A stretch of 64,000 nucleotides of DNA from Kiritimatiellia bacterium (GTDB lineage Bacteria; Verrucomicrobiota; Kiritimatiellia; CAIQIC01; Lenti-01), in contig JAFXQI010000022.1 in NCBI GenBank assembly GCA_017527155.1, positions 160-64,159 on the forward strand. Reading direction: 5' to 3'. The notes below the pieces were generated by a model. That model saw only the letters and a program-made list of their open reading frames with translations, was not told the origin of the DNA and made no database searches. Below are positions 14,180-64,000 of the stretch, one piece after another; positions within the stretch are counted from its first letter, which is position 1, and every line of letters starts with the position of its first letter. The position numbers and the translations under genes were made by a program.

Positions 14180-14192
14180 CGTGTGTCTCCGA

Positions 14193-25432: not shown

Positions 25433-25444
25433 CCTCCCGCCGCC

Positions 25445-28803: not shown

Positions 28804-28804
28804 T

Positions 28805-32054: not shown

Positions 32055-32092
32055 CCGCCCGGCGCACAACCGACCCCGGACGCGGGAAATCC

Positions 32093-32134
32093 CGATTGCA
32101 GTCGATTGCAATCGATTGCAGTCGAATGCAATCG
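32093..32134. repeat. four tandem 10-mers CGATTGCAGT/CGATTGCAAT/CGATTGCAGT/CGAATGCAAT, 56 nt upstream of the secretin start
   Basis: Read directly from the sequence; 10-bp (one helical turn) periodicity. Confidence 0.8.
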
Positions 32135-32189
32135 AAAAACCCGCCCGGGCCGCAAGGAGACGTTTGACCACAACGACGGAGTCGAGAGC

Positions 32190-40397: not shown

Positions 40398-40431
40398 TCC
40401 GACCGCCCGCCTCCGACGCCCGCTCCGCCGC

Positions 40432-40471
40432 CGATTGCCGTCGATTGCCCTCGATTGCAGTCGGTTGCAGC
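40432..40471. repeat. four tandem 10-mers CGATTGCCGT/CGATTGCCCT/CGATTGCAGT/CGGTTGCAGC, 25 nt upstream of TPR-membrane paralog 2
   Basis: Same CGATTGCNNT family as 32093-32134, again x4 with 10-bp phase. Confidence 0.8.
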
Positions 40472-40495
40472 CGCTTTCCCCGGAAGGCTCCCTGA

Positions 40496-43750: not shown

Positions 43751-43822
43751 CCGCCCGCTTGCCCCATCCCGGCATCGCATCCGCGCATTCCCTCCTGCAC
43801 GGCCTGGAAATCCCATGCTCTA

Positions 43823-43844
43823 GGCGGGCAGGGGACTGCCCGCC
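43823..43844. terminator. GC hairpin (GGCGGGCAG-GGGA-CTGCCCGCC) downstream of TPR-membrane paralog 2, nested in a larger GCCCTACCC/GGGTAGGGC inverted repeat
   Basis: 9-bp stem, no T-run, so it may be a structural/REP-like element rather than a terminator. Confidence 0.3.
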
Positions 43845-44025
43845 CTACCCCGGGACGCTCCCCCTGCGCAGAGGGCGGGTAGGGCGGCGAGTCCCCTCCC
43901 CGCCGCGCAAACGCCTGGCACCTCCTGGCCAATGGGATTCGCGGATGCGTCCTCCGCGTCCGTCCCCTCTCCGTCGTCCGTATCCGCTCAGCGGTTCCCG
44001 GGTTTTCCATGTAAATAATCCGCAT

Positions 44026-44055
44026 CTTGTCACTTGTCACTTGTCACTTGTCACT
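44026..44055. repeat. four tandem heptamers CTTGTCA, ending 18 nt upstream of the TPR-membrane paralog 3 start
   Basis: CTTGTCACTTGTCACTTGTCACTTGTCACT read directly. Confidence 0.8.
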
Positions 44056-44072
44056 CCCTTCTCCTCTCGCCC

Positions 44073-47000: not shown

Positions 47001-47420
47001 CAGCAGGGCGACCTCGAACGCGCCGAAAAAGCCTTCCGCAACGGCATCGTCCAGCAGCGGAACCCCTTCCTCCTCAACAACCTCGCCCACGTCATCACCG
47101 AGCGCGGCGGCGACTACTACAACGCCCTGTCCCTCGTCGAAGAAGCCATCCGCCGCGACCCCACCGAAATCTCCTTCCTCGCCACCCGCGCCGCCGTCAA
47201 CCTCCACCTCGGCGACCCCGCCGCCACCCTCCGCGACCTCTTCGTCCTCAAGCAGGCCGGCCAGATGAACCACTCCCGCTGGCTTCTCTGCATGGAAGCC
47301 CTCGTCCAGCTCGGCAAATGCGAAGAAGCCCGCCGCGTCGGCCTCTCCATCGCCCGCGACCCCGCCCTCTCCCCCTCCGACCTCTCCCGCATCCACGACC
47401 TCATCGCCTCCTGCAAATAG
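44073..47420 (+). CDS. polytopic membrane protein with C-terminal TPR repeats (paralog 3 of 3)
   Basis: 1115 aa. Same architecture (LVLYLLTMSWSAFPGPP; SLPHTFHMAMLM). ATG at 44073 is preferred over the upstream TTG inside the heptamer repeat. Confidence 0.5.
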   Translation: MSSPSSNLPPPRPGFLPGLLDRIRSRLRPAPPPRKPPTLGSFTPDGKFQFFQPRDVDAFFEGRDAHAAIKFDAYAHLHPRRWVLDIALFCIALVLYLLTMSWSAFPGPPTNELLSKMSVEATPSPTDFLWGWAVRLLDRFPVLPLPSWMGLVSAFFGALTVAMLTDLMMNVGYLVRNEPGPWSFEFEAYGRRLSAFCAGLFLAICPPFWIASTRSLPHTFHMAMLMACACLFSRYQHWGRKRDLFALAFLFGIGCTESSAFLVFLPAFIPLMIRELVRWNKASSFGHHLLLWGTLALSAAGLYAFNAHVLYKRGLFMEIYASPLDALLGILRAQLSVVSAANGHPGFLVLMAFTLIPWLIAFLITHRSPWFYERWEVCVRITCLAGLLGILYDCNYSPWKLMGMYPCLVTPYLLVAGSFGYICGEFLIFGERNKLCEIRTCQKVLHRVSFVFALCLPFLVAGAAVRNYGTADGRYARLVEDASLDILDRRGAGRDIFFSSGILDNTLRLLTWQKRDPTCFINTRQLNSRTYLKTLTRFIIDPVLTPMLAKGDIIQFLDELLLNRGDYFRIGLIDFTNPVFLEYGDFVPDGYFYTVEPDLASVDWTARFEHQRPFWKLLQDMRDTPIPEGNPMYRFREALLRIAGKGIDNFAIELLRAGRPADANEVLRIGHGIDPENVSILLNLASMASEYPLEEGFDPDAEVDRIIPLIHGHRWNCGANFGFVWDARSWVRNGRVWAISAEVPRTLAQRRAAENNFEEDALHAKWIDIAFGLYGVPRPDEIACRNALVRDDHDQHALLELAFLAMRAKDLEMARAYIVEALSVGHAEAEVAFHRALLQYLDGERAEAFESVRYQTTYDTLNERLWITDLLMAEDANDEKEIYRARSALAMFRPGLLGTHLSLARHFMDLKLWRLAQRELDRAAEIAPSTVILWEMMGEVASQTGNAALMQVSLRALQARNPQHYLKYQNEGLLAYQQGDLERAEKAFRNGIVQQRNPFLLNNLAHVITERGGDYYNALSLVEEAIRRDPTEISFLATRAAVNLHLGDPAATLRDLFVLKQAGQMNHSRWLLCMEALVQLGKCEEARRVGLSIARDPALSPSDLSRIHDLIASCK

Positions 47421-48980
<1,560 letters not shown>

Positions 48981-48998
48981 CCCCCTGTCCTTCCCCCC

Positions 48999-49030
48999 GG
49001 GCGGCCCTCCCAAGGGCCGCCCTTTTTTTT
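48999..49030 (+). terminator. rho-independent terminator of eno
   Basis: GGGCGGCCC-TCCCAA-GGGCCGCCC followed by T8. Confidence 0.85.
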
Positions 49031-49264
49031 GCCCCCCGAGGTTCCGCACCCACCCCGAAAGAGCCGCCCCCCTCTTTTTCCCCCTCCCCCTTCACGCCCC
49101 CCCGTTCCCCCCTTCTACCCATCCCTCCAAGCGGTCCCGCGCCCGGCCCGAAAGGGCCGGGTCCCTCCCCCTCCTCCCCCTCACACCCCCCGTTTCCCCC
49201 TTCCACGAGGTCCCGCTCCCCGCCGCGTGCGGCGGGGACTCCCCGCTCCCCAAAGTGCCCCCCG

Positions 49265-52200
49265 TCACTCCCCCGCCTGCATGTGCCGGTTCGGCAGCGT
49301 GTAGAATTTCTTCGGGTTGTACGTCCAGGTCCAGCTCTCCCCGGCCCCGCCGCTCTTCGACACGATCACCAGCACGTCGTTCGGCTTGAAGTACCCGGCC
49401 GGCACCATCCCGTTCCCGCCCACGAACCGCCACTCGTACCGGACCTGGCCGTCCTCCACCACCTTCTTGCAGTAGCAGGAATGACCCGGCTCCCTCGTGA
49501 TGGTGTCGATCGTGTAGATCTGGTCGCCCCGGAACACCTGGCTCCCCTCCACGTACCCGAACCCGCTTTCCACCAGGTTCATCTCGGACGGATGCGCCGC
49601 CACCGGCAACCGCAACGCCACCACGTTGAACACCGGCGCCGTGACCTCCCCGCACTGGATCGCCTGGCTGAACCCGTTCGTCGGCACCTGCAGGATCGGC
49701 TTCCACACCATGTACGGCACGACCGTCGTGTTCCCGTTCGAGTGGCGGATCGTCTCCGTGCCGGCCACGTACTTCTCCGGCAGCTCGTTCGGCAGGTTGA
49801 TCGAAAACGCCCGCGTGAAGAAATTCCGGTCCGTCTGGACCACGTCTCCGACCGGCCGGTCGCCGCCATCCATCCATTCCCCGTCGTCGCGCAGCCAGTA
49901 CGTTTCGTGCGCCAGCGCGTTCGTGGCGGGCGTGAAGAAGTCGATGGTCGTCCCGAGCGCCGCCGTCGTCCCGCCGGGGAACTCCTCCGCCCCGCCGAAC
50001 ACGGCGTGGAACGTGTTCGTGTACGGCACGCCGTGCAGCGCCGTGTAGTTCTCCCCCGGCCGCAGCCGCACCGCCGTCTGCGCGTACACTTCCTCGCTGA
50101 CCAGCGGCGTCTGCGCCGTCACCTGCCCGGTCGTGGCGTTCGTCACGGCCTTCTTCCAGCGGTCCTTGTAGCTCGCGCGGTAGAAGCGGATCGACCCGCG
50201 GTTGGTCGGCCCGCCGTCGTCCACGAACCAGTTCGTCTTCACCGTCTGCAGCAACTTCCAGTCGTTGTCCGGCGACTCGCGGAAGTTCCGCGCGTCCCAC
50301 TGCAGCAGGTCGTAGTCCTTCGTCGCTTCGCCTTCCATCTCACCGGTTTCGGCGTTCCGCGTCATGCCGGCCGCGGTCCACTCCAGGGCGGACACCACGG
50401 CGTTGGTCAGGCGCTGGCCGATGTCGGAGACGCGCCCTTCGAGCGCCGTCACCGCCTCCGCCTTCGGCACGTGCCAGCCGCGCGTCAGGGAGAACTTGAT
50501 GGTGTTGTTCGTCGCCCAGCTGTTGGCGTTGACCGGGCCTTCGTTCCCGGCCTTGTCCACGCCGACGACCACGACGACGTACTCCTGGTCGAAGTCCAGG
50601 TCGTACAACCGCACGGTCTGCTGGTTGTTCGCGTCCTTCGTGATCTGGTCCCAGCCGCTGTACTTGCGCTTCCCGCCCACGGCCGGCGCGGTCACGTCCT
50701 CGATCTCGGCTCCGTTCTCCACGTGCTTCCACCCGGCCCCGTGGTACTTCGGACGTCCCTGGTCGTCGGTTCCTTCGATCAGCGTCTCGTACAGGTACGT
50801 TTCCGTGCTCTTCCCGGCCTTCGAGGCCTTGTCCTCCATATCCACCGGATCGTACGTCGTGTAGTAGACCCGGTACGTCCCCCACGGCGAGAGGACGTCC
50901 TTGCCCGACCAGCCGGTCTGGTAGTTGGCGTCATCCGGATCGTCCGGCCCGATGTCGTTGGAGAACCACGTCAGGTCGAACTGCGTCGTCGGGTCGTCCA
51001 CCTGGTCCGTGCTGGCCCCCTTCCCGTGGCTCTTGAACGCCACCGGCGTCGGCGCCGTGATGTCGTACGCCGTGTGGAACGCCGCCGCGGCGCCGACCAT
51101 CCGGTCGTTCCGCCGGTCGTTGTCCGCGTCGACGGCGTACAGGAACTTGTTCTGCAGGCCCTGCGCTTCGGGCGTCGCCACGTAGCGCATCATCCCCGTC
51201 GTTCCCGCGCCCTTCTTCACGGACAGCCGCACGTCGTCCACGTTCGCTCCCGCACTGTTCGCGAACAGGCAGAACCGCATGTACGCCGCGCCGGCTGGCA
51301 CCGTGATGGTCTTCGTCGCCAGCGCGCGGTCCTTCAGCCACTCCTCGACCGGGTCCCCGCTCGCACCGCTCCCCGTGTTGAACTGATAGGCGCCACCGCC
51401 GGCCTGGTTCCCGCTCGGGCTCGTCCACATCACGTCCCCGCCGTCGAAGTCGGCCGTCGCCGCCGCCAGCTGGATCTGCGCGTACACGATGGTTCCCGCC
51501 CCGCGCTTGTACACGCTGGCCGTCACGTCCACGTCCACCGTGTAGTCGCTCCCGGAGACCTCCAGCGGCAGGATCTGCGCCACTTCGGGATACCCGTTCG
51601 CCGACGTGTGCGCCTGCAGGTAGAAGGAATTCACGCCCTCCTTCGCCGTCACCTTGGCGCCTCCCTTCGACACGCCGGTCGGCTGCACGCCGGACCCGGA
51701 GACGTTGCACGTCCAGGGCTCCGCCGTGGCGTTCTCGAAGCCGCCGTTCCCGGCCGCCCCGTTCGTCACGGTCACGCTGTACGCCGACGCCGCCGCCCGC
51801 CCCGCGTCCGTGTCCGCCAGCGCGACGCGGTACTCGCCGACGCCGGTGACGCCGTCCTGGACGACGTCGATCCACCCGTTCGCCGTCATCTCCTCCGCCG
51901 TGGGCGCCTCGTCGTGGGCGACGGCGAAGGTGATGGTGAAGTCGGGCTTGTTGGTCCACAGCGGCTCGGTGACGGAGTCCATGGAGACGCCGTTGACGGC
52001 CACGCCGGACGGCGCCGTCGGCCCCTTCACGTCCTGGTCCACGACGGTGAACCCGAAGTCGCCGTCGATCTTGAGGCGGTCGACGTTCTCGCCGCCGCTG
52101 GTGCGGTCCGCGTCGGCGTCCCAGACCTCGACGGACCCGGTGTAGTCGCCGAGGACGACGTTGTTGTAGCCGGCGGCGACGCCGGAGAGGTCGACGGCGA

Positions 52201-55200
52201 ACTCACCGGCGGCCTCGCTCTTCGCGTCGGCCATCGACCCGGTGAAGGCCAGGGCGGTCGTGGGCACCAGCGTGGTCCCGCCGCGCTTGAGCGAGTAGGT
52301 GGCCTCGCTGATGCCGCTCTTCTCGTCCCAGGCGTTGCCGGTAAGGCTGCCGAGGGAAGCCCCGCCGGCCAGCGCGTGGTCGGTCACGTACGTCACGTCC
52401 TCGGTCTGCCCGTTCGCGTACGTCACCGTCCCCTCGACCGTCAAATCGTGGATGTACCACGGCGCCCCGACGCCCTTCGACGGGTCGGCGCATCCCGTGC
52501 CGCGGATTCGCAGTTCGTTCAGCGAGTTCCCGTCCAGCGTGATGTCCACCGCCAGCGAGCACCCGTCCTTCCACGTCTTGATGGTGTCGGCGGTCCACGC
52601 CGACGCGCCGGAAGGCAGCAGCGAGAGGCTGCCCAGCGTCGTTTCGGTGCCGTCGGCGGGCGCGTCCGTGTCCGGGTCGATGGAGGCGGCGGTGATGCCC
52701 GAGACGAGGGACACCGTGCAGGCCGTCGGCGAGTTCGTGCTGCCGGTCTTGCTGTCGAAGGAGATCTTGTTGATCTTGAAGACGGCCCCGTCGTCGCCGG
52801 TGGTCCCGACGAGCGTCTCCAGGCGCACGTACCAGTACTTGGTCCCGAAGTGCCAGCCCGACTGGTAGACGCCCCACCCCTTGCTTGCGTCGGCCGAATC
52901 GTACGCGATCGGCCGCAGCGGCTTCGGCGGCTCGGCCCCGCCGCCGGCGCGCGCCTTGAGGACGCTGGCGTTGAGCCCGTTCGCGTGCTTCGTCGCCGCC
53001 GCGGCCGTTGCCTCGGGCTTGTCGCCGAAGCACCACGCCGCCAGCGTGTTGCCCGTGCGCGGCTTCATGCTCGTCATCTTGATTTCCGGCGGATCCTCGT
53101 CGTCGTCGTACACCCGCAGCACGCCGAAGTCGCCGTTGAGCGTGGTCTGGTCGCCGGCCCGGTCGTCGTCCGCGTCCGCCACCGTGATCTTCAGGTGCGT
53201 CCCGCCCTCTTCGGAGGCGGCGAACCACTTCTGCACGTTGTCGGTCGTCAGCGCCTCGTCCACCTGCCACGAGAGCGAGCTCGCGGGGTCCTTGCCGCCG
53301 TCGACGAGCGACGCGCTGCGCGTGTGGGCCGCGCCCGAGCCGGCGACCGTCTCCAGCCCGCTCTTGAACACGGCCGTCGCCTCGTCCAGCCCGCTGCCCG
53401 GGTCGCTGACGCGCGCAAGGAACGTCGGCCGCGCCCCGACCAGGGCCGCGTCGCTGACCGCCACCTCGTCGGGCGTCCCGCGCACCTGGATGCAGTCCAT
53501 GCGGAACGACCCGTTACCCGTCTTGCGCTCGGAGACCACCACGCGGAACCACAGGTGGCCGACGCCGCGCGGGATCGCCGGCGCCCCGTCCTTCTCGTAT
53601 TCCAGGCTCCCCACGAACTCCGCGAACGTGCTCGCCCCGCCCGTGCCCGTCGTCGCGTCCAGCTCCAGCTCCCAGACGTCCTCCCACGACACGCCGTCCG
53701 TCGAGACCTGGACCTTGCCCGCCTTGAACCCGTCCGAACCGGTCGCGTACCAGAACGACACCTCGCGGTCCGTCATGCTCTCCATGTCCGTCTCGAACCC
53801 GATCCACGCCTCGTCCTCGGCCGTGATGTTGTACCCCTCCGTGTTGCACTTGAAGTACAGCTCGCCGTTCCCCACCTGGTTCACCCCGTTGAACTCCACC
53901 CCCGTCACGCCCTTGCCGGACCCGACGGACAGCAGGCGCTCCACCGTCCCCAGGTTCGCGCTGCACGTCAGTCGCGCGTTCTCCTTCTCCGCGCTCCCGC
54001 TCCAGACCTCCATCGCGGCCGCCGCGCTGGCGGTGTTCGTGAAGCTCCACCCCGCCAGCACGAAGTCGCGCGTCCCCGCCGCCCGCTCCAGCAGGTCCGG
54101 CACCCCGCCCGTCTTCGTCAGGTACAGCCCGTTCCCCTCCGCCCCCAGCACCGGCGCCACCTCGTCGTCGTCGTACACCGTGAACTCCATGTTCCCCCCC
54201 AGGCCGATGTTCCGGTCGTACTGCCCCGCCGTCGCCACGAAGTTCGTGTACTTCGGTGTCGTGTCGTAGTCGTCGTTCAGTCGCGGCTCCGGCCAACACC
54301 AGTCGCGGTACTCCCACTCGCTCTCGTCGATGATGTATGGCTTCGACCGCGGCAGGTGCGTCGCCGTCTCTTTGCGGCTCATGATGAATTTGCCGTCCTC
54401 GCTCGGTCCGTGGTCGATGATGTTCGCCGAGTTCCCGCATGCATCCAACCAGTTCAGGCTCACGCGGCTGCTGCCCTTGGCCGCCGTCACGGTCGCCTCG
54501 TCGAAGTCTTCCGCCTTCACCAGAAGGTAAGGGACCTTTCCGCCCGCATCCAGAACTTCGTTCGTCATGAGGATGTATCGCGCGCCCGCCTGCGTCAACG
54601 CCGTTTTCAGGGCAGCCAACCGGTTGTTTCGGATGGTCAGATCGTCGCCCGAAGCGCCCATTTTGTTGTTCAGCAACACAATGGTTTCCTTGTGGTGCAA
54701 GATGACGTGTTCGCTCGGGTTTTCCTCGGGGCAAATCCGGGCAAACGGATGGGTTCCATTGGGGATGAGGTTGTCATAAGTCGCACTGAAATCGTTCCCG
54801 CCAGACGATGCGTTCGCCGGCCGGAAGATGTAGTAGTCGTACAGGTCGATGTCGTGTCCCGTTCCGTTGTACAATTCGATGTACTTGTCCCAATACCGCC
54901 CTTCCCCGTATTCCCCGAAGAACAGATCCGACGCCCCGCCGCCGCCCGTTTCGCTCGCCGCCGTCACGGTCGCTTCCTTGCCGCCGATGCTCGTCATCTT
55001 CACTTCCACCGTGTAGGTCGCGTTCGTCGAAATCCAGTTCGTCGGCACCGCCACCCCGACGGCTCCGCCGATCCTGCCCGCCGCGTTCGTCGTCCACCAC
55101 TCCGGATACGCCGAGTCCCGCGCCCCGTCCAGATGGACCGCCACGGGCGCGCCGCCCGTGCCCGCCCGCGTGTCGTTCGTCGTCACCGCCCCCGTCTGCG

Positions 55201-58200
55201 CGTTCGTCGTCGTCGCCCGCCACTCGGCCGGACGCAGCAGGCTGTTGCCCTCTTCGTCCTTGATCGTGAAGCTCGCCGCCGCGATGCCCGTCCGGTGGTA
55301 CAGCTCGAACTGCGCGTTCAGCCCCACGTCGCCGTGCGCCAGCGCGCCGTCGCTGATCTTCCACAGCCGGTGCCCGTCCGCGTCCTCGCCGACCATGATG
55401 CCGCTCCCCGCATCCGGCTTGTCGAAGTCGAACGACTCCACCTCCGGCGCGTTGAACAGGAACAGCTCCTCCCACGTCGAGGCGAACCGCACTTCGTCGA
55501 AGTACACGTGGCCCAGTTCCTTCCCGCTCTCGGACCCCGCCCGCAGCTGGATTTTCGCCACCGGCGCCGGCGTTCCCGAGAAGTCGCAGTCCGCGACGAA
55601 CGAATTCATCGCCGTCGGCAACGTGTCGAAGGACACCTCTTCGTCCCGGCCTTCGACCTTCTTCGAGAAGATTTCGGGAATCTGCCCCGCGCCCGCGTAG
55701 TACGCCCACATCCTGAACTTGCCGGCGTTCCGGTCCACCTGCCCGACCACGATGTAGTCGTTCCCGTGGCCCGAATACAGCTCGAACGGGTCGAACCCGG
55801 CGTACTGCCCGCCGTCGTACTCGATGGCGGCGTTGATGCTGTCCCACCCCGGCTTGCCGAACGACACGATGTCGTTCCCGCTCGCGTCCTGCAGCACGAT
55901 CTGGATCCACTTGCTCTCCGCTCCCGTCTCGGGATGCGGCTCGTCGTAGTTCAGGATGGCCGCCACGAAGAAGGTCCCTCCGTTCGGGCTCGCCAGCGCG
56001 CGCGTGAGTTTCGCCTCGTCGCGGGACCCCGTGGAGGTGTCCTGCCAGTACAGCTTGTTGGCCGCCGGAGCCGGATAGCGCGTCTCCCCGACCGGCAGGC
56101 TCGCGTCGTGGAGCTTCCACTTGTCCGTGTCGCCCGTCCACGGCCCGCCCCAGCCGCTGCCCGTCTCCGGCCGCGTCTCGTAATTGAAGGCCAGCGCCAG
56201 GTTCTGCGGGTCCGTGTCCCCGATTTCCGGCACGCTCGTCCGGTACGCGAACGCGTCCACGCCCTCGCCCGGCTCGTACTTCGCCGTCGTGCAGGGCCAG
56301 CCGCCCTCCTCGACCGCGCCGGCGACCGGCACGCCGCTGCCGTCCACGGCCGTGTGGTCCGTCACGGTCACCGCGCCGGTTGCGGCGTTGGTGGTGGAGG
56401 TGGTCCAGTGGTAGGCGGTGGGATGCACGGGCGTGCTGAAGAAGTGGCCCGTCGTCCCGTCGCCCGTCATCCCGTACACCGCGAAGTAGTTCGAGCTGCC
56501 CGGCGCCACCACGAACTCCCGCGCCGTCCACGTCCCCGCCAGATGGTTGTCCCCTGTTCCGTTGTACACCACCTTCCCCCACCCTTCGACCGTCGTCCCT
56601 TCGGCCAGCGCTTCGAGCCGCCCCTGCGGCGCCGCGTCCTCCGCGATTTCCTCGTCGCTCCGCACCACCACGTACGTCTTGCCGGCCGTCCGCGCCCAGC
56701 GCAGCACGACCATTTCCGCCCCGTCCGCCTCCGCGGTCGCCCAGGCCGGTGCCACTGGCGCCTCGTCGCAGAGCGTGAAGCGGAACTCCGCCGTCCCCTC
56801 CAGCGAATCCCCCGCGCGGTCCCGGTCGTGGTCCCACGCGCGGACCGTCACCACGCAGTTCGTCGTCCGCCACGCCGCGTCGAACGCGCTCGCCGGGATG
56901 CTCCCCGACAGCGCCACGTCCGTCCCCGCCCCGTCACCCGACGGCACGATCCCCGCCGACGCGAACGTCCCCGACGCCCGCTCCGTGTCATCGACCGTCA
57001 GCGTCCACCCCGGCGCCTTCGCCCCGCCCGTCCAGATGCCGCTCGCGTCGTGCACCATCCCCGTGAAGCTCAGCCCCGCCGACGCCGCCGTCGCCGCCGC
57101 CACCGCGCCGCCGATGTCGAACCCTTCCAGCTCCGGCGCCTCCGTGTCCTCGTCAATCACGTGGACGACCGACGGAATTTCCTGGCCCTTCTGGCAGGGG
57201 AAGTGGAAGTCGTCGAACAGCCCCCACTTCTTGTCGCTGCCCCCGGCCGTCGTGTCGTGCCCGTGGTTCCAGACCGCGCCCGCGTACGGGAGCGATTCGC
57301 CGATCAGGTCGCCGCCGGCGAGGTGGACCGTCGCCGCGAGGTCCGCGTCCGTGCATTCCTCCAGCGGGTTGCCGCCGGTGGACGCGACCTCCTTGACGAA
57401 CAGCTTCATCCGCGCCGGCACCTCGTCCTGCACGTCCTCGATGTACTCCTGCCCCGGCAGGAAGTCCACCCGCACCGCCAGCGTCTTGCCCGCGAACGTC
57501 CCCGTCCACCCGTGCGGCTTCGTCCCGTCCTCCACCCACGCCCCGGACCCGTTCTTCGTCCGCGGCACCAGCACCGTCCGCGTGCCGCTCTCGATCCACC
57601 CCTTCGAGAAGCGCACCAGCTCGATCCCCGCCCCCGTCATCGTCACCGCGTACCCCTTCTGCGCCGTGTCGTTCGCGAAGAACCCGCTCCCCGCCGCCCC
57701 CAGCACGAACGCGCCCGCCGTGCTCCCGTCCGTGAAGTTCACCGGCTCGCCGCCCATCCGGAAGTGGAAGCCCCACGACACCGCCGACGCCATGTCCTCC
57801 GGATTCTTCTCGTACCCCCAGTCCGACATATCCCTCACCGCCGCCGCGCGCCCGTCCTCCCCGCTCCGGTCCCCGTACGGCCCCCACAGCTCCAGCGCAC
57901 CGCCGTGGATTGCCGCCGAACCCGGCGTCGAATCCGTCGACTGCGCCACCCACCCCTCCTCCAGCGCCCCCAGCCCGTCGCCCTTGCGGTCCGCCCGCGT
58001 GAAGTCGTCCAGCAGCCACCCCTTCTCCGCCGGCGTGTACGTCCCCGCCGCCGCCGCCGGCACCTCGTGCGTCTTCGTCGCGTCCCACGCCGAGACCTCC
58101 ACCGTGTACGCCCCGCGCACCGCCCCTTCCGCGCCCAGCGCCGGCACCGCCGCCGAGAACTCCATGCACGACTTCCCGCCGTACGTCCGGGCGACCACCC

Positions 58201-61200
58201 CCGTGAACGCCTGCCCCGACAGCACCGCCGTCCCCTCCGGGTCCTTCAGCGTCCACGTCGCCGCCTTCGCGCCCGTCAGGTTCGTCCAGATCCCGTTGTA
58301 GTGCCACAGCACCACCTTCAGCTCCGGCCGCTTCGCCCCCGGCAGCTCCCCGCCCGTCCCGTCCGGCGTCCCCAGCGCCAGCGAGTGGTCCGCGATCGTG
58401 TCCTCGATCCCGAGCCCGTCCTCCACGTCCACCGTGAACACCGTCGGCGGCTCCGTGCTCGGGTCGTGGCATTCGCCCGCCAGCGGGATGTCGAACGTCT
58501 TGCCCGCGGCCACCGTCCCCTCCGGATTCGCGTTGTATGCGTTGCACGTCACACGCAGCACCGCGTCCTTCGTCCCCGCCGTCACCGGCGCGAACCGCAC
58601 CGTCACCGAGTGCGTCTGCCCCGGCTCCAGCGTCGCCGCCGCCCCGCCCGACACCACCGTGTACCCGATCCCCGACGGCACCACCGCGATCGACGCGATC
58701 TCCAGCGCCGGCGTCGTCGCCGGATTCAGCCGGCTCCCCGAGTTGCGCAGCGTGAACGTCTTCTCCGCCGACTCGTCCCGCTCCAGCGTCCTGAAGTCGT
58801 ACCGCTTCGGCACCGCCGCCAGCTGCGGCACGTCCGCCGTCGCCGCGCTGCCGCCCGTCGCGTTCGTGCAGCCCCCGTCGCTCCACGCCGTCACCATGTA
58901 CCAGTACGTCTCCCCCACCTCCAGACCGTCCACCGTACGGCTCCAAGGCGCCTCCGTCACCGTCGTCTGGTACTTCAGCCCCACCTTCCCGCTCCCCGAT
59001 CCCGACGGAACCGTCGGCACCACGCGGATGTTGTCGATGTACACGCGCTTCTTCGTCGTCTCGAAGCAAATCCAGAAATCCGTGTTCCCCGACGGCAGGC
59101 TCGCCTGGAACGTCTGCCAGCTGCTCCCCGGCTCCACCGACTTCAGCTCCGTCCACTCGTCGTTCTCCGCGTCGTCGTCCCCGTCGTCCAGGCAAATCTG
59201 CACCGACACCGTCGTGCCGTCCCCGTAATCCATCAAATCGAAGTAAACCGTTCCCCCGTTCGCCAGCCCACCCGCAATCCGCCGCGTCGTGATGAAGCCC
59301 GTCGCGGACCCCGACCCCAGCTTCGCGCTCCCCGAATTCGGATACACCTTGCCCCCGTACCACCCGCTCAACCCCGTGTAGCTGTCCAGATTCTCCCCGA
59401 CATCCGCCGTCGTGGTGGACGTGAAGCCCGCGAAATCCTGTTCCAGCACCGCCGAACCATCGCTTGACGAACTCGTCCACACCCCCTCCGTGTCCGAGAC
59501 CAGCACCGTGTAGTAGTCCGCCCCCGGCACCGGCGTCCAGGACAGCGTCAGCGCCGTCCCCGCGCCCGCCGGCGACACCGACGGCGCGCCCAGCGTCGCC
59601 TCCGCGCTCGCCGGCTCGCTCCCGGCGCTCGTCGTCGGCGTCCCTTCCACCGCCGCCGACTGCCACGCCCGGTACCAGTGCGTCGCGCAGCCCGCCAGCC
59701 CCGTGTCGTCGAACGCCACCAGCGTCGCCGATTCCGTCGCTACCGTCGCCACCACGCTCCCGTTCGCGTCCGCCAGCGCGTCCTCCCGGCTCGCGTACCG
59801 CTTCAGCGTCACCGTCGCCCCGGCCGCGCGCGTCACCGTACCCGTCACCTGCCCCGCCCCGGGCCCCGTCCACGCCGTCACCGTCGGCGCCCCCAGCAAC
59901 TCCGCCGTCGAAAAACTGTCGCTCCCCGACGTCCCGCCCGTGCAACCCCCGTCGCCCAGCGCCGTCACCTTCCACCCGTACCCCGTCGCCTCCGTCAGCC
60001 CGCCCAGGGTCACCCCCGTCGCCCCGTTCGCCGCCACCGTCACCGCGCTCCCCGCCTGCACCACCCCGCCGATCACGTCATCCACCTTCGTCCCGCTGGA
60101 GCCTCCCTCCCATTCAATCGTGATCGAGTTTGCATAGCTCGCCCCGCCGGACGGCACAATCAACACCGCCACGTAGCCGCTCTCCGAAATGTCGCCCGTC
60201 GACGGCGAAGCATAGGTCAAGGTTCCAATCTGCGTCGCCCCGCTCGTCGACGTCCCGTCAAACGTCCCGCTCGTCTTCCCATACACTTTGTAGGAATTGG
60301 CGTTCTTGAACCAGTCGACGGACACCGACTTCAGCGTCCCGCCGCTCGTCGTCGTCCAGATTCCCCGCTCATTCCCGCTCTTTGCATTCTGCTGGATGCC
60401 GCTGCCATTGTCGGAACTCGCCTTCGCAACTTCCCCGGCATATACGGCATCCGATCCATCGGCCGCCTGCACGCCACTGAAGCCCGAATACGCATTCACG
60501 CTCGTCACCCCCAGCGTCTCGATTGTCAGCTCGTCCGTCTTCGTCTCGCTCCCGCTCCCGCCCTCATAGTGCCACAAGTCAATCGCGTACCCCGCCGCCC
60601 CCGCCGCCGGGGCCCACGTCAGCGTCGCGTTGTGCGCCCCCGGCGTCCCGTGCCCCAGCCCCGTCGGCGCCGCCGGCGCGCTCGCGGCCGCCGTCCCCGT
60701 CCGCGCCGTCCCGCAAGCCACCCCGCCAATTACTTCCCAAGCCTTGAAATAGTGGGTCTTGCACCCGGTCACTCCGCTGACCGTGTAACTCCCGCCCGTC
60801 AGCCCCGTCGCCTCGTTCGCCCACGCCGTCCCCGGATCCGGAATCGCCGCCAGGCTGACGTCGCTCCACCGCACCAGCACGCTCCCGCCCGCCCCCGCCG
60901 TCCACGTCAAATCGACCTGCCCGCCCGCCGACGCCCCCGTCGCCGCCGAAAACGCCGTCAGGTTCCCGATCGTCTGCAAGCCCGTCGCCGACGTCTCCCC
61001 GTTCTTCCGCGCCCCCGTCGTCGCGAACGCGTCCTTCGTCAACGCCGCCACCCCGACCGTGTTCCCGCCCGACGCCCCCGCCTTCGTCACCGCCTCGATC
61101 CACACGTAGTACGTCTGCCCCGCCGTCAGCGTCTGCGCGCTCCCGAACGTCACCGTGTGGCTCCCCGCCGCACCCGCCGTCACCGTCCCCTTCACCGTCT

Positions 61201-64000
61201 CCGTCCCCGCGAACGTCGCGCTCGTCCCCACCCGGACCTGGTACGTCGCCAAGTCGCCCGTCCCCGCCGTCCCCGTCGTCGTGAACGTCACCCCCGTCAG
61301 CGTCGGGTTCACCGACCCGCTCGCCACCGCCAGCTTCGTCCCCTGCACCAGAACCGTCTGCCCCGCCGCCACGGCCCCCGCCGCCACCGCGCTGTCGTTC
61401 CCCGCCCCGTCCGCGTCGCTGATCGTCACGTCCGTCACGGTCGTGTCTTCCTTCGTCGTCACGTCCTCGACGTTCGAGTCCCCGCTCGTGCAGCTGCTAT
61501 TCGCCCCTTCCGCCCGGACCTTCACGTGGTACGTCGTCTGCTCGTCAAGCCCCGTCACCGTGTACGTCGTCACGTTCCCCACGTCCTTGTCCTCGTACCC
61601 CGCCACGTACGTGATCGATCCTGCTTTTTCCCATTCCACTTCAATCTGGCTGGCATAGCTGGCCCCTCCGCCGCTACCCGTCATCCCGACATATTCGTAG
61701 TCGGTGGTAAACGTGTATTCCGTGCTGGTTCCGCACACAATGGAACCCACCTGCGTCCCGTCCACCGGGGAAGACATGGCCGAATGGCTCCCGTAAATCA
61801 GAATCGAGCGCCCGGAGCTGGTGCCGGAATACCAAGTTACCGTCACTTTTTTGACGGTGCCGCCGGAAGTGGTCGTCCAGATTCCGTGGTCGGTGTTCAC
61901 ATTCATCTGGATGCTGCTGTTGCCCCCGGCGGTCGCCCCGGCGTATACCGCGCCGCTCTGATCCGATTTGTCGCTCCAGGACGCGTAAGAGCCGGAAGTG
62001 GTCGAGCCGGTCCATGCGCTCGTCATCGTGTCCGTCTTCGAGGACCCCGCCCCGCCCGTGTAAACGTCCAACCGGTACTTCGCAGCCCCCGGCACCGCAC
62101 TCCACGTCGCCACGAACTGGTTGTGCGTCGTGGTTCCCGCCGCGATTGCGTTCAGCACCGGCGCCGCCGGCGTCGCAATCGTCGCATTCGCCACTCCGCT
62201 CCCCGCGCTCCACGCATCCTCACTGGCGGCCTTCGCCCACACCTTGTAATAATACGTGTTGCATCCGACGACCGTCGTGTCCGTGAAGGTCGCCGCCGTC
62301 CCCCGGTACACCACCGTCGCCGCGTTCGCCCCCGTTCCCAGCGTCCCGCCCTGGTTCGGTCCCGACCCGGTCGGATTGGTGTCGAACGTCCCCGTCGTGT
62401 TCCGCGCCACCACGTATGTCACCCCGCTGTCCCCGCCCGTCAGCGTCCCCGACCCGGCATCCGTCACGGTCACCGACGGCGTCGAAACGCTCGAACTCGC
62501 CACCGTCGTCCGCGCCCCCGCGCTGTAGTACCCGTTGTTCACCGAGTACAGCACGTACGTGTACGTCGTCCCCTGCGCCACAGCCGTATCCACCGACGTC
62601 CCCGCCCATTCCCGGTACACCACCGTCCCCGCCCCGATCGTCGCCCCTGACTCATAGTGCTGTCCCGGCGTCGGCGCCGTCACCGTCGGAGTCGCCCCCG
62701 TGTAGCGCACGATCATCACCGGATGGCTGGCCGCGTCCAGGCTCCACCGCAGCGCCACCGTCTCGTAGCCCGCCGTCGCGCTCGTCACCGCCGGATCCGG
62801 CACCGGCTCCACCGTGAAGTACGTCGCCCCGAAGTCCGTCGGCAGCCACGTCGTGTAATTCACCCAGTCGCCGGCGCAACGCACCGTCGAGTTGTCCCCC
62901 GCCGCGTTCTTCGCCGCGTAAATCACGTTGTACTGTCCCACCTGCGTGAACTGGAACCCCGCCAAATCTCGCCGCACCCGCTTGTTCCCGGACTTCTCTC
63001 CCTCTTCGTAGTACCCAGCGTCCGCCCAGTCGAAGTCGCCCCACACCGTCCCCGTCGAAAGCCCGATACCCACCTCCGACTTGTTCCAGCTGCTCTGCCC
63101 GATTTCGAAATTCAGGAAATGCTCGCCCATCGTGTCCCCCACCGTCTTCGTCCCCTGGTTCCCCGTCGTCAGCGGCTTGATCCAGATGTTCCCCGTCGTC
63201 TCGTTGATTCCCGTCCCCGTCAGCGCCACCGTCGCCGGACTCCCCGACGCCGCCCCGCTCGCCGTCACCGTCAGCGTCCCGCTCTTGCCCCCCGCCGACG
63301 CCGGAGCGAACCGCACCGACACCGTCGCGCTCCCCCCCGCCGCGATGCTCTGCGAACTCCACGCGCTCACCAGCGAGAACCCCGTCCCGCTCACCGACAC
63401 GCTCCCCACCGTCAGCGCCACGTTGCCCGTGTTTCGGATCGTCACCGTCTCCGTCTTCGGCGAATCCAGCGGCGTGTTCCCGAAGGCCAGCCCCCCCGCG
63501 CTCTCGTCCACCGCCAGGATCCCGCCTGTCGCCGAGGCCGTCACCGTGAACCGGTACGGCGTCGTCTTCTCCCCGTCATTGTGCGTGAAGCTCACCGTCG
63601 CGCTCTTCTGTCCCGCCCCGATCATCTCCGCCGTCGGCGTGAACGTCACCGTGAACGTCGTGCTCCCGCTCCCGGCCACCGACCCGCTCTCCGGCCCCGT
63701 CACCGTGAACCCCTGCCCCGCCGTCACCCCCACCGTTCCCAGCGTCAGCGTCCCGCTCCCCGTGTTCGCCACCGTGAACGTCTTTGTCTGCGGACTCCCC
63801 ACCCCCACGTTCCCGAACGCCACCGTCCCGTCGTACGCCACCCCGCTCCCCCCCACCGTCACCCCCATCGTCGGCGTAGCCGCCGTCGGCTCCTCGTGCC
63901 CGATGCTCGACGTCGTCTCGCACGACTCCCCGCCGTTCGCCGTCACGCGGTACGAATACGTCACCCCGTTCGTCAATCCGCTCAACGAGTGCGAAACGTT
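49265..64000 (-). CDS. giant surface/adhesin-like protein (>4900 aa, 5'-truncated by window edge) with tandem Ig-like/FN3-like beta-sandwich repeats and a lamin-tail domain
   Basis: Single ORF 49265 to beyond 63985. Dozens of ~100-aa Thr/Gly/Ser-rich repeats (TFTV..TGSGTLTLG..). FN3-like segments. Lamin-tail-domain motif (LFFGEYGEGRYWDKYIELYNGTG). Confidence 0.85.
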   Translation of the reverse strand, partial: NVSHSLSGLTNGVTYSYRVTANGGESCETTSSIGHEEPTAATPTMGVTVGGSGVAYDGTVAFGNVGVGSPQTKTFTVANTGSGTLTLGTVGVTAGQGFTVTGPESGSVAGSGSTTFTVTFTPTAEMIGAGQKSATVSFTHNDGEKTTPYRFTVTASATGGILAVDESAGGLAFGNTPLDSPKTETVTIRNTGNVALTVGSVSVSGTGFSLVSAWSSQSIAAGGSATVSVRFAPASAGGKSGTLTVTASGAASGSPATVALTGTGINETTGNIWIKPLTTGNQGTKTVGDTMGEHFLNFEIGQSSWNKSEVGIGLSTGTVWGDFDWADAGYYEEGEKSGNKRVRRDLAGFQFTQVGQYNVIYAAKNAAGDNSTVRCAGDWVNYTTWLPTDFGATYFTVEPVPDPAVTSATAGYETVALRWSLDAASHPVMIVRYTGATPTVTAPTPGQHYESGATIGAGTVVYREWAGTSVDTAVAQGTTYTYVLYSVNNGYYSAGARTTVASSSVSTPSVTVTDAGSGTLTGGDSGVTYVVARNTTGTFDTNPTGSGPNQGGTLGTGANAATVVYRGTAATFTDTTVVGCNTYYYKVWAKAASEDAWSAGSGVANATIATPAAPVLNAIAAGTTTHNQFVATWSAVPGAAKYRLDVYTGGAGSSKTDTMTSAWTGSTTSGSYASWSDKSDQSGAVYAGATAGGNSSIQMNVNTDHGIWTTTSGGTVKKVTVTWYSGTSSGRSILIYGSHSAMSSPVDGTQVGSIVCGTSTEYTFTTDYEYVGMTGSGGGASYASQIEVEWEKAGSITYVAGYEDKDVGNVTTYTVTGLDEQTTYHVKVRAEGANSSCTSGDSNVEDVTTKEDTTVTDVTISDADGAGNDSAVAAGAVAAGQTVLVQGTKLAVASGSVNPTLTGVTFTTTGTAGTGDLATYQVRVGTSATFAGTETVKGTVTAGAAGSHTVTFGSAQTLTAGQTYYVWIEAVTKAGASGGNTVGVAALTKDAFATTGARKNGETSATGLQTIGNLTAFSAATGASAGGQVDLTWTAGAGGSVLVRWSDVSLAAIPDPGTAWANEATGLTGGSYTVSGVTGCKTHYFKAWEVIGGVACGTARTGTAAASAPAAPTGLGHGTPGAHNATLTWAPAAGAAGYAIDLWHYEGGSGSETKTDELTIETLGVTSVNAYSGFSGVQAADGSDAVYAGEVAKASSDNGSGIQQNAKSGNERGIWTTTSGGTLKSVSVDWFKNANSYKVYGKTSGTFDGTSTSGATQIGTLTYASPSTGDISESGYVAVLIVPSGGASYANSITIEWEGGSSGTKVDDVIGGVVQAGSAVTVAANGATGVTLGGLTEATGYGWKVTALGDGGCTGGTSGSDSFSTAELLGAPTVTAWTGPGAGQVTGTVTRAAGATVTLKRYASREDALADANGSVVATVATESATLVAFDDTGLAGCATHWYRAWQSAAVEGTPTTSAGSEPASAEATLGAPSVSPAGAGTALTLSWTPVPGADYYTVLVSDTEGVWTSSSSDGSAVLEQDFAGFTSTTTADVGENLDSYTGLSGWYGGKVYPNSGSAKLGSGSATGFITTRRIAGGLANGGTVYFDLMDYGDGTTVSVQICLDDGDDDAENDEWTELKSVEPGSSWQTFQASLPSGNTDFWICFETTKKRVYIDNIRVVPTVPSGSGSGKVGLKYQTTVTEAPWSRTVDGLEVGETYWYMVTAWSDGGCTNATGGSAATADVPQLAAVPKRYDFRTLERDESAEKTFTLRNSGSRLNPATTPALEIASIAVVPSGIGYTVVSGGAAATLEPGQTHSVTVRFAPVTAGTKDAVLRVTCNAYNANPEGTVAAGKTFDIPLAGECHDPSTEPPTVFTVDVEDGLGIEDTIADHSLALGTPDGTGGELPGAKRPELKVVLWHYNGIWTNLTGAKAATWTLKDPEGTAVLSGQAFTGVVARTYGGKSCMEFSAAVPALGAEGAVRGAYTVEVSAWDATKTHEVPAAAAGTYTPAEKGWLLDDFTRADRKGDGLGALEEGWVAQSTDSTPGSAAIHGGALELWGPYGDRSGEDGRAAAVRDMSDWGYEKNPEDMASAVSWGFHFRMGGEPVNFTDGSTAGAFVLGAAGSGFFANDTAQKGYAVTMTGAGIELVRFSKGWIESGTRTVLVPRTKNGSGAWVEDGTKPHGWTGTFAGKTLAVRVDFLPGQEYIEDVQDEVPARMKLFVKEVASTGGNPLEECTDADLAATVHLAGGDLIGESLPYAGAVWNHGHDTTAGGSDKKWGLFDDFHFPCQKGQEIPSVVHVIDEDTEAPELEGFDIGGAVAAATAASAGLSFTGMVHDASGIWTGGAKAPGWTLTVDDTERASGTFASAGIVPSGDGAGTDVALSGSIPASAFDAAWRTTNCVVTVRAWDHDRDRAGDSLEGTAEFRFTLCDEAPVAPAWATAEADGAEMVVLRWARTAGKTYVVVRSDEEIAEDAAPQGRLEALAEGTTVEGWGKVVYNGTGDNHLAGTWTAREFVVAPGSSNYFAVYGMTGDGTTGHFFSTPVHPTAYHWTTSTTNAATGAVTVTDHTAVDGSGVPVAGAVEEGGWPCTTAKYEPGEGVDAFAYRTSVPEIGDTDPQNLALAFNYETRPETGSGWGGPWTGDTDKWKLHDASLPVGETRYPAPAANKLYWQDTSTGSRDEAKLTRALASPNGGTFFVAAILNYDEPHPETGAESKWIQIVLQDASGNDIVSFGKPGWDSINAAIEYDGGQYAGFDPFELYSGHGNDYIVVGQVDRNAGKFRMWAYYAGAGQIPEIFSKKVEGRDEEVSFDTLPTAMNSFVADCDFSGTPAPVAKIQLRAGSESGKELGHVYFDEVRFASTWEELFLFNAPEVESFDFDKPDAGSGIMVGEDADGHRLWKISDGALAHGDVGLNAQFELYHRTGIAAASFTIKDEEGNSLLRPAEWRATTTNAQTGAVTTNDTRAGTGGAPVAVHLDGARDSAYPEWWTTNAAGRIGGAVGVAVPTNWISTNATYTVEVKMTSIGGKEATVTAASETGGGGASDLFFGEYGEGRYWDKYIELYNGTGHDIDLYDYYIFRPANASSGGNDFSATYDNLIPNGTHPFARICPEENPSEHVILHHKETIVLLNNKMGASGDDLTIRNNRLAALKTALTQAGARYILMTNEVLDAGGKVPYLLVKAEDFDEATVTAAKGSSRVSLNWLDACGNSANIIDHGPSEDGKFIMSRKETATHLPRSKPYIIDESEWEYRDWCWPEPRLNDDYDTTPKYTNFVATAGQYDRNIGLGGNMEFTVYDDDEVAPVLGAEGNGLYLTKTGGVPDLLERAAGTRDFVLAGWSFTNTASAAAAMEVWSGSAEKENARLTCSANLGTVERLLSVGSGKGVTGVEFNGVNQVGNGELYFKCNTEGYNITAEDEAWIGFETDMESMTDREVSFWYATGSDGFKAGKVQVSTDGVSWEDVWELELDATTGTGGASTFAEFVGSLEYEKDGAPAIPRGVGHLWFRVVVSERKTGNGSFRMDCIQVRGTPDEVAVSDAALVGARPTFLARVSDPGSGLDEATAVFKSGLETVAGSGAAHTRSASLVDGGKDPASSLSWQVDEALTTDNVQKWFAASEEGGTHLKITVADADDDRAGDQTTLNGDFGVLRVYDDDEDPPEIKMTSMKPRTGNTLAAWCFGDKPEATAAAATKHANGLNASVLKARAGGGAEPPKPLRPIAYDSADASKGWGVYQSGWHFGTKYWYVRLETLVGTTGDDGAVFKINKISFDSKTGSTNSPTACTVSLVSGITAASIDPDTDAPADGTETTLGSLSLLPSGASAWTADTIKTWKDGCSLAVDITLDGNSLNELRIRGTGCADPSKGVGAPWYIHDLTVEGTVTYANGQTEDVTYVTDHALAGGASLGSLTGNAWDEKSGISEATYSLKRGGTTLVPTTALAFTGSMADAKSEAAGEFAVDLSGVAAGYNNVVLGDYTGSVEVWDADADRTSGGENVDRLKIDGDFGFTVVDQDVKGPTAPSGVAVNGVSMDSVTEPLWTNKPDFTITFAVAHDEAPTAEEMTANGWIDVVQDGVTGVGEYRVALADTDAGRAAASAYSVTVTNGAAGNGGFENATAEPWTCNVSGSGVQPTGVSKGGAKVTAKEGVNSFYLQAHTSANGYPEVAQILPLEVSGSDYTVDVDVTASVYKRGAGTIVYAQIQLAAATADFDGGDVMWTSPSGNQAGGGAYQFNTGSGASGDPVEEWLKDRALATKTITVPAGAAYMRFCLFANSAGANVDDVRLSVKKGAGTTGMMRYVATPEAQGLQNKFLYAVDADNDRRNDRMVGAAAAFHTAYDITAPTPVAFKSHGKGASTDQVDDPTTQFDLTWFSNDIGPDDPDDANYQTGWSGKDVLSPWGTYRVYYTTYDPVDMEDKASKAGKSTETYLYETLIEGTDDQGRPKYHGAGWKHVENGAEIEDVTAPAVGGKRKYSGWDQITKDANNQQTVRLYDLDFDQEYVVVVVGVDKAGNEGPVNANSWATNNTIKFSLTRGWHVPKAEAVTALEGRVSDIGQRLTNAVVSALEWTAAGMTRNAETGEMEGEATKDYDLLQWDARNFRESPDNDWKLLQTVKTNWFVDDGGPTNRGSIRFYRASYKDRWKKAVTNATTGQVTAQTPLVSEEVYAQTAVRLRPGENYTALHGVPYTNTFHAVFGGAEEFPGGTTAALGTTIDFFTPATNALAHETYWLRDDGEWMDGGDRPVGDVVQTDRNFFTRAFSINLPNELPEKYVAGTETIRHSNGNTTVVPYMVWKPILQVPTNGFSQAIQCGEVTAPVFNVVALRLPVAAHPSEMNLVESGFGYVEGSQVFRGDQIYTIDTITREPGHSCYCKKVVEDGQVRYEWRFVGGNGMVPAGYFKPNDVLVIVSKSGGAGESWTWTYNPKKFYTLPNRHMQAGE

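Follow-up and report, generated by a model that had tools for sequence, protein, structure and literature searches.

A giant multi-domain protein gene of a Kiritimatiellia bacterium and the protein family defined by its C-terminal module

Domains of the choice-of-anchor D (NF012200) and ASH/HYDIN type are usually partnered with a PEP-CTERM signal, with the C-terminal domain (CTD) of the type IX secretion system (T9SS) or with an LPXTG signal. Cargo proteins of the T9SS combine an N-terminal Sec signal with a variable passenger and a conserved C-terminal beta-sandwich module, the CTD of about 80-100 amino acids (aa), which is common to several cargoes per genome and is detected by NCBIfam and Pfam models. 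Very long chains of immunoglobulin (Ig)-like domains with acidic inter-domain motifs are known from SiiE, the LapA/RTX adhesins and SdrD; SiiE and LapA are substrates of type I secretion systems (T1SS), which lack a Sec signal peptide, carry a C-terminal RTX/T1SS signal and are encoded adjacent to genes for ABC, MFP and TolC components (PMC6272769). In Omnitrophota, which belong to the Planctomycetes-Verrucomicrobia-Chlamydiae (PVC) superphylum, giant open reading frames (ORFs) of several thousand residues encode beta-sandwiches of the adhesion and carbohydrate-binding type along with large unannotated stretches (West-Roberts et al., bioRxiv 10.1101/2023.11.21.568195). In this study, we analysed a gene of similar dimensions in a 64,000-nucleotide (nt) stretch of DNA from a Kiritimatiellia bacterium (GenBank assembly GCA_017527155.1, contig JAFXQI010000022.1, positions 160 to 64,159), hereafter termed the window, in the last 14.7 kb of which an earlier note, made from the letters alone, had described a 5'-incomplete giant ORF of more than 4900 aa. 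On balance, we favour the view that this ORF is the gene for a secreted, cell-surface-associated multi-domain protein of Kiritimatiellae with a conserved C-terminal handle, a module of about 640 aa by which a whole family of such proteins can be recognised.

Like the Omnitrophota giants, the window protein comprises several thousand residues, is rich in beta-sandwiches, contains unannotated stretches and is encoded in a genome region that also holds a gene similar to those of type II secretion systems (T2SS). Unlike it, the Omnitrophota proteins possess transmembrane segments as well as SecA-like and peptidase domains and are encoded directly beside a secretion locus, and a conserved C-terminal module is not mentioned in the cited portion of that work (bioRxiv 10.1101/2023.11.21.568195). 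As giant beta-sandwich surface proteins are expected in the PVC superphylum, the protein is an object of a known kind and the result alone overturns nothing, whereas the C-terminal module is modestly novel.

49265-64000, minus strand: giant ORF, open at its 5' end at the window edge (ORF translation; GC content at the third codon position, GC3, 0.93)

The minus-strand frame is open from the window edge at 64000 to a stop codon at 49265-49267 and comprises 4911 codons plus the stop. At a GC content of about 69%, the window contains ORFs of more than 1000 aa in several frames, those outside the true frame being shadows of the base composition, and misassembly of the repeated units in the 5' third of the gene is conceivable. 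That the ORF arose by chance from GC-rich sequence, is an artefact of assembly or represents a pseudogene nevertheless appears vanishingly improbable. The GC contents of the three codon positions (GC1/2/3) are 0.60/0.54/0.93, uniformly so in each 1.5-kb slice, with GC1 above GC2 along the full length, and the 3841-aa ORF on the opposite (plus) strand over the giant gene shows a GC1 of 0.94, from which it follows that the minus frame is the coding one and the 3841-aa ORF its antisense shadow. Moreover, the sequence of the gene is identical in three assemblies over 49265-58980, by which all three of these readings are refuted for that stretch, neither of the two independent assemblies contains a frameshift or stop in the parts of the gene that it covers, orthologs are collinear over 3200 aa, and confident AlphaFold2 models were obtained. 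Translation and codon-position GC thus bear out the single uninterrupted minus-strand ORF described before, and the protein is indeed rich in Thr, Ser and Gly and poor in Cys (G 12.6, A 12.1, T 11.5, S 7.3 and C 0.7%).

Contigs matching the window locus were retrieved with the neighbouring enolase protein as an anchor, the loci reaching 10 kb around it, and an enolase with an identical protein sequence is present on 22 public contigs. Scaffold L002 (ENA ERZ28653664, scaffold_3626, 38,015 bp) is 100% identical to window 37700-58980, and contig L003 is identical to the window across the portion of the giant gene that it covers. The gene is called complete at 5784 aa on L002, and lengths of 5784 and 6070 aa are called on contigs of the same strain, so that roughly 870-1160 N-terminal residues fall outside the window, which, judged from these calls, carries the 3' 85% of a gene for a protein of about 5800 aa. 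The homologs with an organism label all belong to Kiritimatiellae/Kiritimatiellia, in agreement with the PVC-group origin proposed earlier, and Kiritimatiellia, Verrucomicrobiota or Lentisphaerae appear in the titles of the locus records. The source is an uncultured bacterium, probably from a herbivore gut to judge by the names of samples and of metagenome-assembled genomes (MAGs); the sample label XIEF21 and the J6Y19 locus tags point to a metagenome study of the ruminant gut.

The evidence for a family comes from the C-terminus, which according to the alignments is the most conserved part of the giant protein and defines a multi-copy family. Three features of this region are used below:

49268-51193, minus strand: family-defining C-terminal module of about 640 aa, aa 4270-4911 (alignment and profile searches)

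49268-50545, minus strand: terminal 426 aa, all-beta, confident model (AlphaFold2 predicted local distance difference test score, pLDDT, 85; predicted template modelling score, pTM, 0.84)

49268-49333, minus strand: conserved tail WTWTYNPKKFYTLPNRHMQAGE (consensus W.W.Y.P..FY.LPTRWMG, then 1-2 residues)

An alignment-based DNA scan of GTDB genomes and JGI metagenomes with the last 1000 aa as query found 56 loci in 28 GTDB species genomes (labelled Kiritimatiellia, Verrucomicrobiota or Lentisphaerae; 1-3 copies each) and 33 JGI metagenome loci with the C-terminal module, and in nearly all loci covering the 3' end of the gene the match extends to about residue 996 of the 1000. In a word index of 5.8 billion proteins, the same 1000 aa had three homologs, and the N-terminal 400 aa retrieved only generic choice-of-anchor-D proteins of 400-700 aa, the giant orthologs being evidently absent from this index. 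The module is composed of an Ig unit with the motif DADNDR, an FN3-like unit whose last residues are VGVDKAGNEG, and a compact beta assembly of about 420 aa at the end. When 65 non-identical module sequences were aligned (alignment A3, with the window as row 1), 44 columns were invariant, and the window module was 29-82%, mostly 42-53%, identical to the 64 other sequences; conserved blocks are VGVDKAGNEG and SWATNNTIKF. The window protein aligns over the module from end to end and contains both the invariant W, Y, P and R of the tail and the VGVDKAGNEG...SWATNNTIKF block that mark members of the family. A profile search with the module found 27 database proteins, all unnamed, with E values from 1e-117 down to 0; these matches carry no Pfam annotation in the module, none of the 65 modules is matched by an NCBIfam model, and a literature search found nothing on the module family. 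As far as these searches reach, the core of about 3200 aa and the module of about 640 aa are seen only in Kiritimatiellia-type bacteria, and the module appears previously undescribed. Complete module-carrying ORFs comprise 2700-3900 aa, and many exceed 4200 aa and are still open at the edge of the locus. The domains preceding the module vary among paralogs and include DUF11 (four times), SdrD_B, Gly_rich_2, PA, ASH and a CBM48-like domain. Since a common module is thus combined with differing N-terminal domains in the one to three paralogs of a genome, it most likely serves as a conserved handle for variable passengers.

The conservation of the module is mosaic in one pair of genes. Window 49961-50734 (aa about 4423-4680) and L001 3346-4112, part of the P0001 gene from another sample, share a 775-bp stretch with 91% DNA identity and with 90-100% protein identity over aa 4472-4660, and the flanks are only 35-57% identical in protein. 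This pattern suggests that recombination or gene conversion has taken place within the C-terminal module.

With an alignment of 29 sequences, AlphaFold2 modelled the last 650 aa as almost entirely beta, with a mean pLDDT of 80 and a pTM of 0.74. Foldseek searches of the PDB with this model retrieved only tandem-FN3 proteins (contactins, fibronectin, phage T5 pb4) at E values of about 1e-6 and low template modelling (TM) scores. The terminal 426 aa had no significant neighbour in the PDB (best E 9e-3, probability 0.13, TM 0.2 or less), and only weak FN3-like or tail-fibre-like matches in a viral fold library. The module is predicted to be a compact beta-sandwich assembly, neither an outer-membrane barrel nor an enzyme.

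The giant protein ends in ...FYTLPNRHMQAGE, and the earlier statement that this C-terminus lacks a sorting signal was corroborated: motif inspection and Pfam and NCBIfam scans found no PEP-CTERM, LPXTG, GlyGly-CTERM or T9SS-type signal, and no 19-residue window with a Kyte-Doolittle mean above 1.6, i.e. no transmembrane-like stretch, occurs anywhere in the 4911 aa. The usual partners of choice-of-anchor D domains, i.e. PEP-CTERM, T9SS CTD and LPXTG, are hence missing from the window protein and from the family modules. The tail itself, FY.LPTRWMG plus 1-2 residues, could then be a new C-terminal sorting signal for a dedicated processing or anchoring enzyme, comparable to LPXTG/sortase and PEP-CTERM/exosortase. 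Such a role might be read from the invariance of its W, Y, P and R in all 65 sequences, from the position of the stop codon, in most members 4-6 residues past the P.R motif, from the several paralogous cargoes per genome that carry no known sorting domain, and from a 234-aa HExxH membrane protein encoded convergently right after the stop at six loci of one subgroup. Sortase- and exosortase-type signals differ, however, in being followed by a transmembrane helix or a basic cluster, both of which are absent here; the tail is modelled within a folded domain (pLDDT about 80-85) instead of as a flexible peptide; no candidate enzyme is conserved across subgroups; and the motif lies within the protein at 15 loci (11 distinct sequences), where another 131-372 aa with one to three FN3 domains come after it, which means that the module need not always form the end of the protein. 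We therefore regard a sorting signal of this type as improbable.

How a protein of this size would leave the cell is indicated in part by its relatives. Clear Sec signal peptides were recognised in L032, L058, L036, L033, L023 and L090, six of the eight complete members that are distinct in sequence, an example of the basic-hydrophobic-AxA type being MTRLRPGWLPRMPAICLALALGAGGWGPAAWA with cleavage before QV. A clear start was not apparent in the stop-bounded ORFs of L019, L024 and L037. The signal peptides of the six members favour export in two steps over type I secretion. The family resembles SiiE, LapA/RTX adhesins and SdrD in its very long Ig-like chains with acidic inter-domain motifs, in the SdrD_B domains of its paralogs and in presumed surface attachment, but differs from SiiE and LapA in the Sec signal peptides of the relatives, in the absence of RTX or BIg Pfam matches from the window protein and in the absence of T1SS genes nearby, no transporter genes recurring beside family members. 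Autotransporter matches were likewise not found with Pfam, and the AlphaFold2 models of the last 650 and 426 aa show no barrel. With T9SS cargo the family shares the organisation of N-terminal Sec signal, variable passenger and conserved C-terminal beta-sandwich module common to several cargoes per genome, but at about 640 aa its module is far from the size of the T9SS CTD, and a CTD of the Por_Secre_tail/TIGR04183 type was found neither in the last 650 aa (Pfam and NCBIfam) nor in any of the 65 modules (NCBIfam).

A legitimate candidate for the second step is the T2SS, in which case the folded protein would be pushed through GspD after Sec export and released or loosely attached, with the module as its structural secretion signal. 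The earlier note had named an adjacent secretin as a candidate route, and the gene in question is bona fide:

32055-35048, plus strand: secretin, GspD equivalog (NCBIfam, 398.7 bits versus an equivalog cutoff of 351.35)

29797-31485, plus strand: PilM/N-like gene, next to the secretin gene (window annotation)

Giant genes of Omnitrophota adjoin T2SS-like loci, according to the same preprint (bioRxiv 10.1101/2023.11.21.568195), and the members of the present family with Sec signal peptides have no membrane anchor. The word adjacent did not stand, though, since 14 kb separate the secretin gene from the stop of the giant gene, which is on the other strand, and at least four genes lie between them, three coding for tetratricopeptide repeat (TPR) proteins and one for enolase. 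Furthermore, no secretin homolog was found within 10 kb of the other 88 family loci, the upstream flanks of which consist mostly of the giant ORF and are poorly sampled, so that the link to the secretin is no better than genome-wide co-occurrence. To our knowledge, all T2SS cargo is far smaller than a folded chain of about 5800 aa. Taken together, we consider export by the T2SS rather unlikely. A further, tentative idea, to which we give only slightly more weight, is that the module is the recognition or attachment domain of an undescribed pathway that exports or anchors giant Sec-dependent surface proteins of Kiritimatiellia; if so, its function would correspond to that of the T9SS CTD or of surface-layer (S-layer) anchoring domains, and it would serve one to three very different passengers per genome.

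The region upstream of the C-terminal module was annotated by Pfam and NCBIfam scans of the window protein and subsequent Pfam scans of the aligned ortholog segments, with the following features:

58829-64000, minus strand: lineage-specific N-proximal part, aa 1-1724, without collinear counterpart in relatives

49268-58828, minus strand: conserved core of about 3200 aa, aa 1725-4911, collinear with 28-31% identity in about 25-30 loci

58511-58822, minus strand: third Ig domain of the ASH/HYDIN type, aa 1727-1830, with which the conserved core begins (15/16 orthologs match)

55442-56725, minus strand: unannotated region, aa 2426-2853, ending in ...HVYFDEVRF (shared by 41-56 loci)

54614-54928, minus strand: probable lamin-tail domain (LTD, PF00932), aa 3025-3129, containing EYGEGRYWDKYIELYNGTG (ortholog-supported)

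53087-53794, minus strand: super-repeat copy, aa 3403-3638, with a jelly-roll-like end, an Ig unit with ADADDDR and the acidic linker VYDDDEDPP (hhalign)

52019-52831, minus strand: super-repeat copy, aa 3724-3994, with a jelly-roll-like unit, an Ig unit with WDADADR and the linker VVDQDVKGP (hhalign)

51206-51763, minus strand: putative jelly-roll similar to carbohydrate-binding modules (CBM) of the CBM4/9 type, aa 4080-4265, ending in VDDVRLSV (E 0.052, weak)

The Ig/FN3 beta-sandwich character claimed for the protein was substantiated by three ASH/HYDIN/choice-of-anchor-D Ig domains (aa 58-146, 171-261 and 1727-1830) and by fn3 matches in Pfam together with several FN3-like units in the N-proximal part. 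The choice-of-anchor D model NF012200 scored 93 bits (cutoff 45) over three stretches, and PF22544 and PF15780 scored 84.3 and 80.5 bits (cutoffs 25.5 and 27). In these three domains, which pass curated cutoffs, the window protein is like the known choice-of-anchor D proteins, but they make up less than 7% of it, and the database proteins of 400-700 aa share nothing else with it. A unit of about 175 aa is present in two copies (aa 626-799 and 1123-1306). Self-comparison detected repeats only within the first ~1850 aa of the fragment, so that the description of the protein as many repeats of about 90-110 aa holds only in part, the remainder being a conserved collinear core and not a series of simple repeats. 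One subgroup of relatives shares with the window protein only aa 2426-2853, approximately, and the C-terminal module. Apart from the module, no part of the protein is found as widely in the family as the former region, and its motifs suggest a jelly-roll; no Pfam match was obtained for aa 2291-3000 in the ortholog-wise scans, and region 2426-2853 also has no relative in the PDB. Nor did the PDB yield a match when it was searched by sequence and profile with the whole protein and four core segments; the C-terminal module, too, has no sequence relative there.

The LTD had been proposed from the motif EYGEGRYWDKYIELYNGTG, which is located at aa 3029-3047 (window 54860-54916). The motif was found in its place, and an LTD was detected at the aligned position in 14 of 15 orthologs (best E 2.1e-10), but the match of the window sequence itself reaches only 16.8-22.8 bits and remains below the Pfam gathering cutoff of 34.3. 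Compared with bacterial LTD (PF00932) proteins, the putative domain is here one among about 30 modules and does not define the family. A second LTD lies upstream of the core-starting ASH domain in most orthologs (10/16, best E 4e-16), among them L007, L011 and L013 (alignment A5, profile positions about 85-200); it was not seen at the aligned position in the window protein.

A motif scan located four WDxDxDR motifs (aa 2390, 3609, 3961 and 4291) and four linker motifs V.D.D...P (aa 2281, 3275, 3630 and 3986), three of which are situated about 20 residues downstream of a WDxDxDR. Several segments terminate in ..[FY].D[DN][IV]R.., an ending that is common in CBM-type jelly-rolls. Comparison of ortholog alignments with hhalign matched aa 3403-3638 to aa 3724-3994 (probability 97.9%, E 4e-13) and the Ig unit aa 2302-2433 (window 56702-57097) to aa 3873-4010 (probability 95.4%, E 2e-8), and in this profile comparison a cryptic super-repeat of the core, composed of a predicted jelly-roll, an Ig unit with DxDxDR and an acidic linker, was confirmed. 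At aa 4080-4265, CBM_4_9 is matched by 2 of 16 orthologs, with a best E of 1.3e-6.

From these features the following course can be proposed for the secreted surface protein. A Sec signal peptide, as seen in the six complete relatives, would deliver the giant protein to the periplasm, from where it would cross the outer membrane or be displayed on it. Outside the cell, it would form a long beta-sandwich chain, in which Ig units bearing DxDxDR or V.D.D...P are placed between jelly-roll (CBM/LamG-like) units and one LTD. These acidic motifs would be Ca2+-stiffened linkers like those of cadherins, and the chain would present several binding modules to glycans or other surfaces, whereas the ~640-aa module would be the shared handle for retention in the envelope or for recognition by the export machinery. 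The surface location and a glycan-binding or adhesive function are suggested by the extracellular-type domains of the window protein (ASH/choice-of-anchor-D, fn3, and the putative LTD and CBM_4_9) and of its paralogs (DUF11, SdrD_B, Gly_rich_2 and PA). Several points weigh against this interpretation: the signal peptide of the window's own gene is deduced from paralogs and orthologs only, Pfam recognises a single one of the jelly-roll units, and that one weakly, so that the binding function of the chain modules is putative, the Ca2+ reading is borrowed from cadherin and SdrD-type linkers, the module is followed by FN3 domains at the 15 loci mentioned above, and no conserved transporter, anchor or protease gene was found within 10 kb of family members.

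The same chain could also be a structural protein of the envelope or matrix, such as an S-layer-like coat or a biofilm scaffold, in which the modules build a lattice or fibre and do not act in adhesion. The large, Cys-poor and Thr/Gly/Ala-rich protein would suit this role, its compact module (pTM 0.84) could mediate self-association or attachment, and a cluster for exopolysaccharide export lies in the same window. One to three paralogs with very different N-terminal domain sets fit variable binding better than a single lattice protein, however, and neither SLH nor another known S-layer anchoring domain was found with Pfam and NCBIfam, which makes a structural role seem to us an outside chance; in direct comparison, the present data separate the structural and adhesin readings in no respect.

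A surface-associated protein of this kind is of interest for the question of how Kiritimatiellae, which are common but almost uncultured in gut and anaerobic-digester communities, make contact with polysaccharide substrates or host surfaces and capture them. What was a single anonymous giant ORF can now be assigned to a family that is delimited by its C-terminal module and documented by alignments and a confident model. With this diagnostic module, such proteins can be sought in MAGs, in which they occur almost always as fragments annotated as hypothetical. The family also bears on the question of how diderm PVC bacteria display proteins of several thousand residues that lack a known sorting signal.

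The gene neighbourhood in the window includes three further features:

47700-48980, plus strand: enolase, convergent with the giant gene, start Met at 47700 (identical protein on 22 contigs)

48999-49030, plus strand: hairpin followed by T8, intrinsic terminator of enolase, 235 nt from the stop of the giant gene

25433-27928, plus strand: ComEC (window annotation)

The hairpin and T-run that had been noted between the giant gene and eno are present, but on the plus strand, where they terminate enolase and not the giant gene; the 3' region on the strand of the giant gene contains a GC hairpin without a U-run that folds no better than shuffled sequence. The 284-nt intergenic region 48981-49264 between the convergent stops is very C-rich on the plus strand and contains degenerate direct repeats about 90 nt apart, each with a hairpin of the GGTCCCGC...CCCGAAAGGGCC type.

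A conserved adjacency to enolase was considered and rejected, as no enolase homolog occurs in any other family locus (within 10 kb). In L004 (5794-7074; JGI metagenome) and L005 (10001-11281; GCA_017540905.1), an identical enolase protein is encoded with 98.5-98.8% DNA identity to window 47616-49036 in wholly different surroundings, with citrate synthase on one side and rpe on the other and without adjacent giant and TPR genes. The window's own rpe is located at 7952-8650, 39 kb from enolase.

Directly upstream of enolase, window 37248-47420 (plus strand) contains three tandem genes for proteins of about 1050-1115 aa each, in which an N-terminal part similar to the GT-C glycosyltransferase TMEM260 (PF11028) is combined with TPR repeats at the C-terminus; genes two and three encode paralogs with 24% identity. 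O-glycosylation by TMTC and TMEM260 is known from eukaryotes, and by analogy these genes were considered for O-glycosylation of the Thr/Ser-rich giant protein. Synteny lends this idea no support, since no such gene was found within 10 kb of other family members, but it may hold for the present genome.

At the other family loci, the recurrent neighbours are subgroup-specific and comprise a convergent 426-aa gene (8 loci), which from its sequence we take by eye to be an HflX-type GTPase, a GH13-like gene, and the HExxH protein (6 loci). The latter is a multi-pass membrane protein of about 234 aa with the motif YILGHELTHALW, encoded convergently 10-160 nt past the stop of the giant gene in L031 (12712-13416), L041, L042, L046, L047 and L054, all of one paralog subgroup; it is a possible candidate for a processing protease, and it was found neither in the other subgroups nor in the window.

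Two further loci were noted elsewhere in the window. Just upstream of the PilM/N and secretin genes, 28121-28810 (minus strand) encodes a small protein that matches the model for LA_2272-type surface repeats (NF047436) above its cutoff and the VC2662 family below threshold (52.9 bits versus 140). The exopolysaccharide export cluster is located at 10346-15401 (minus strand) and encodes a Bac_transf sugar transferase, a co-polymerase of the Wzz/GNVR/P-loop tyrosine-kinase type and a Wza-like Poly_export/SLBB protein.

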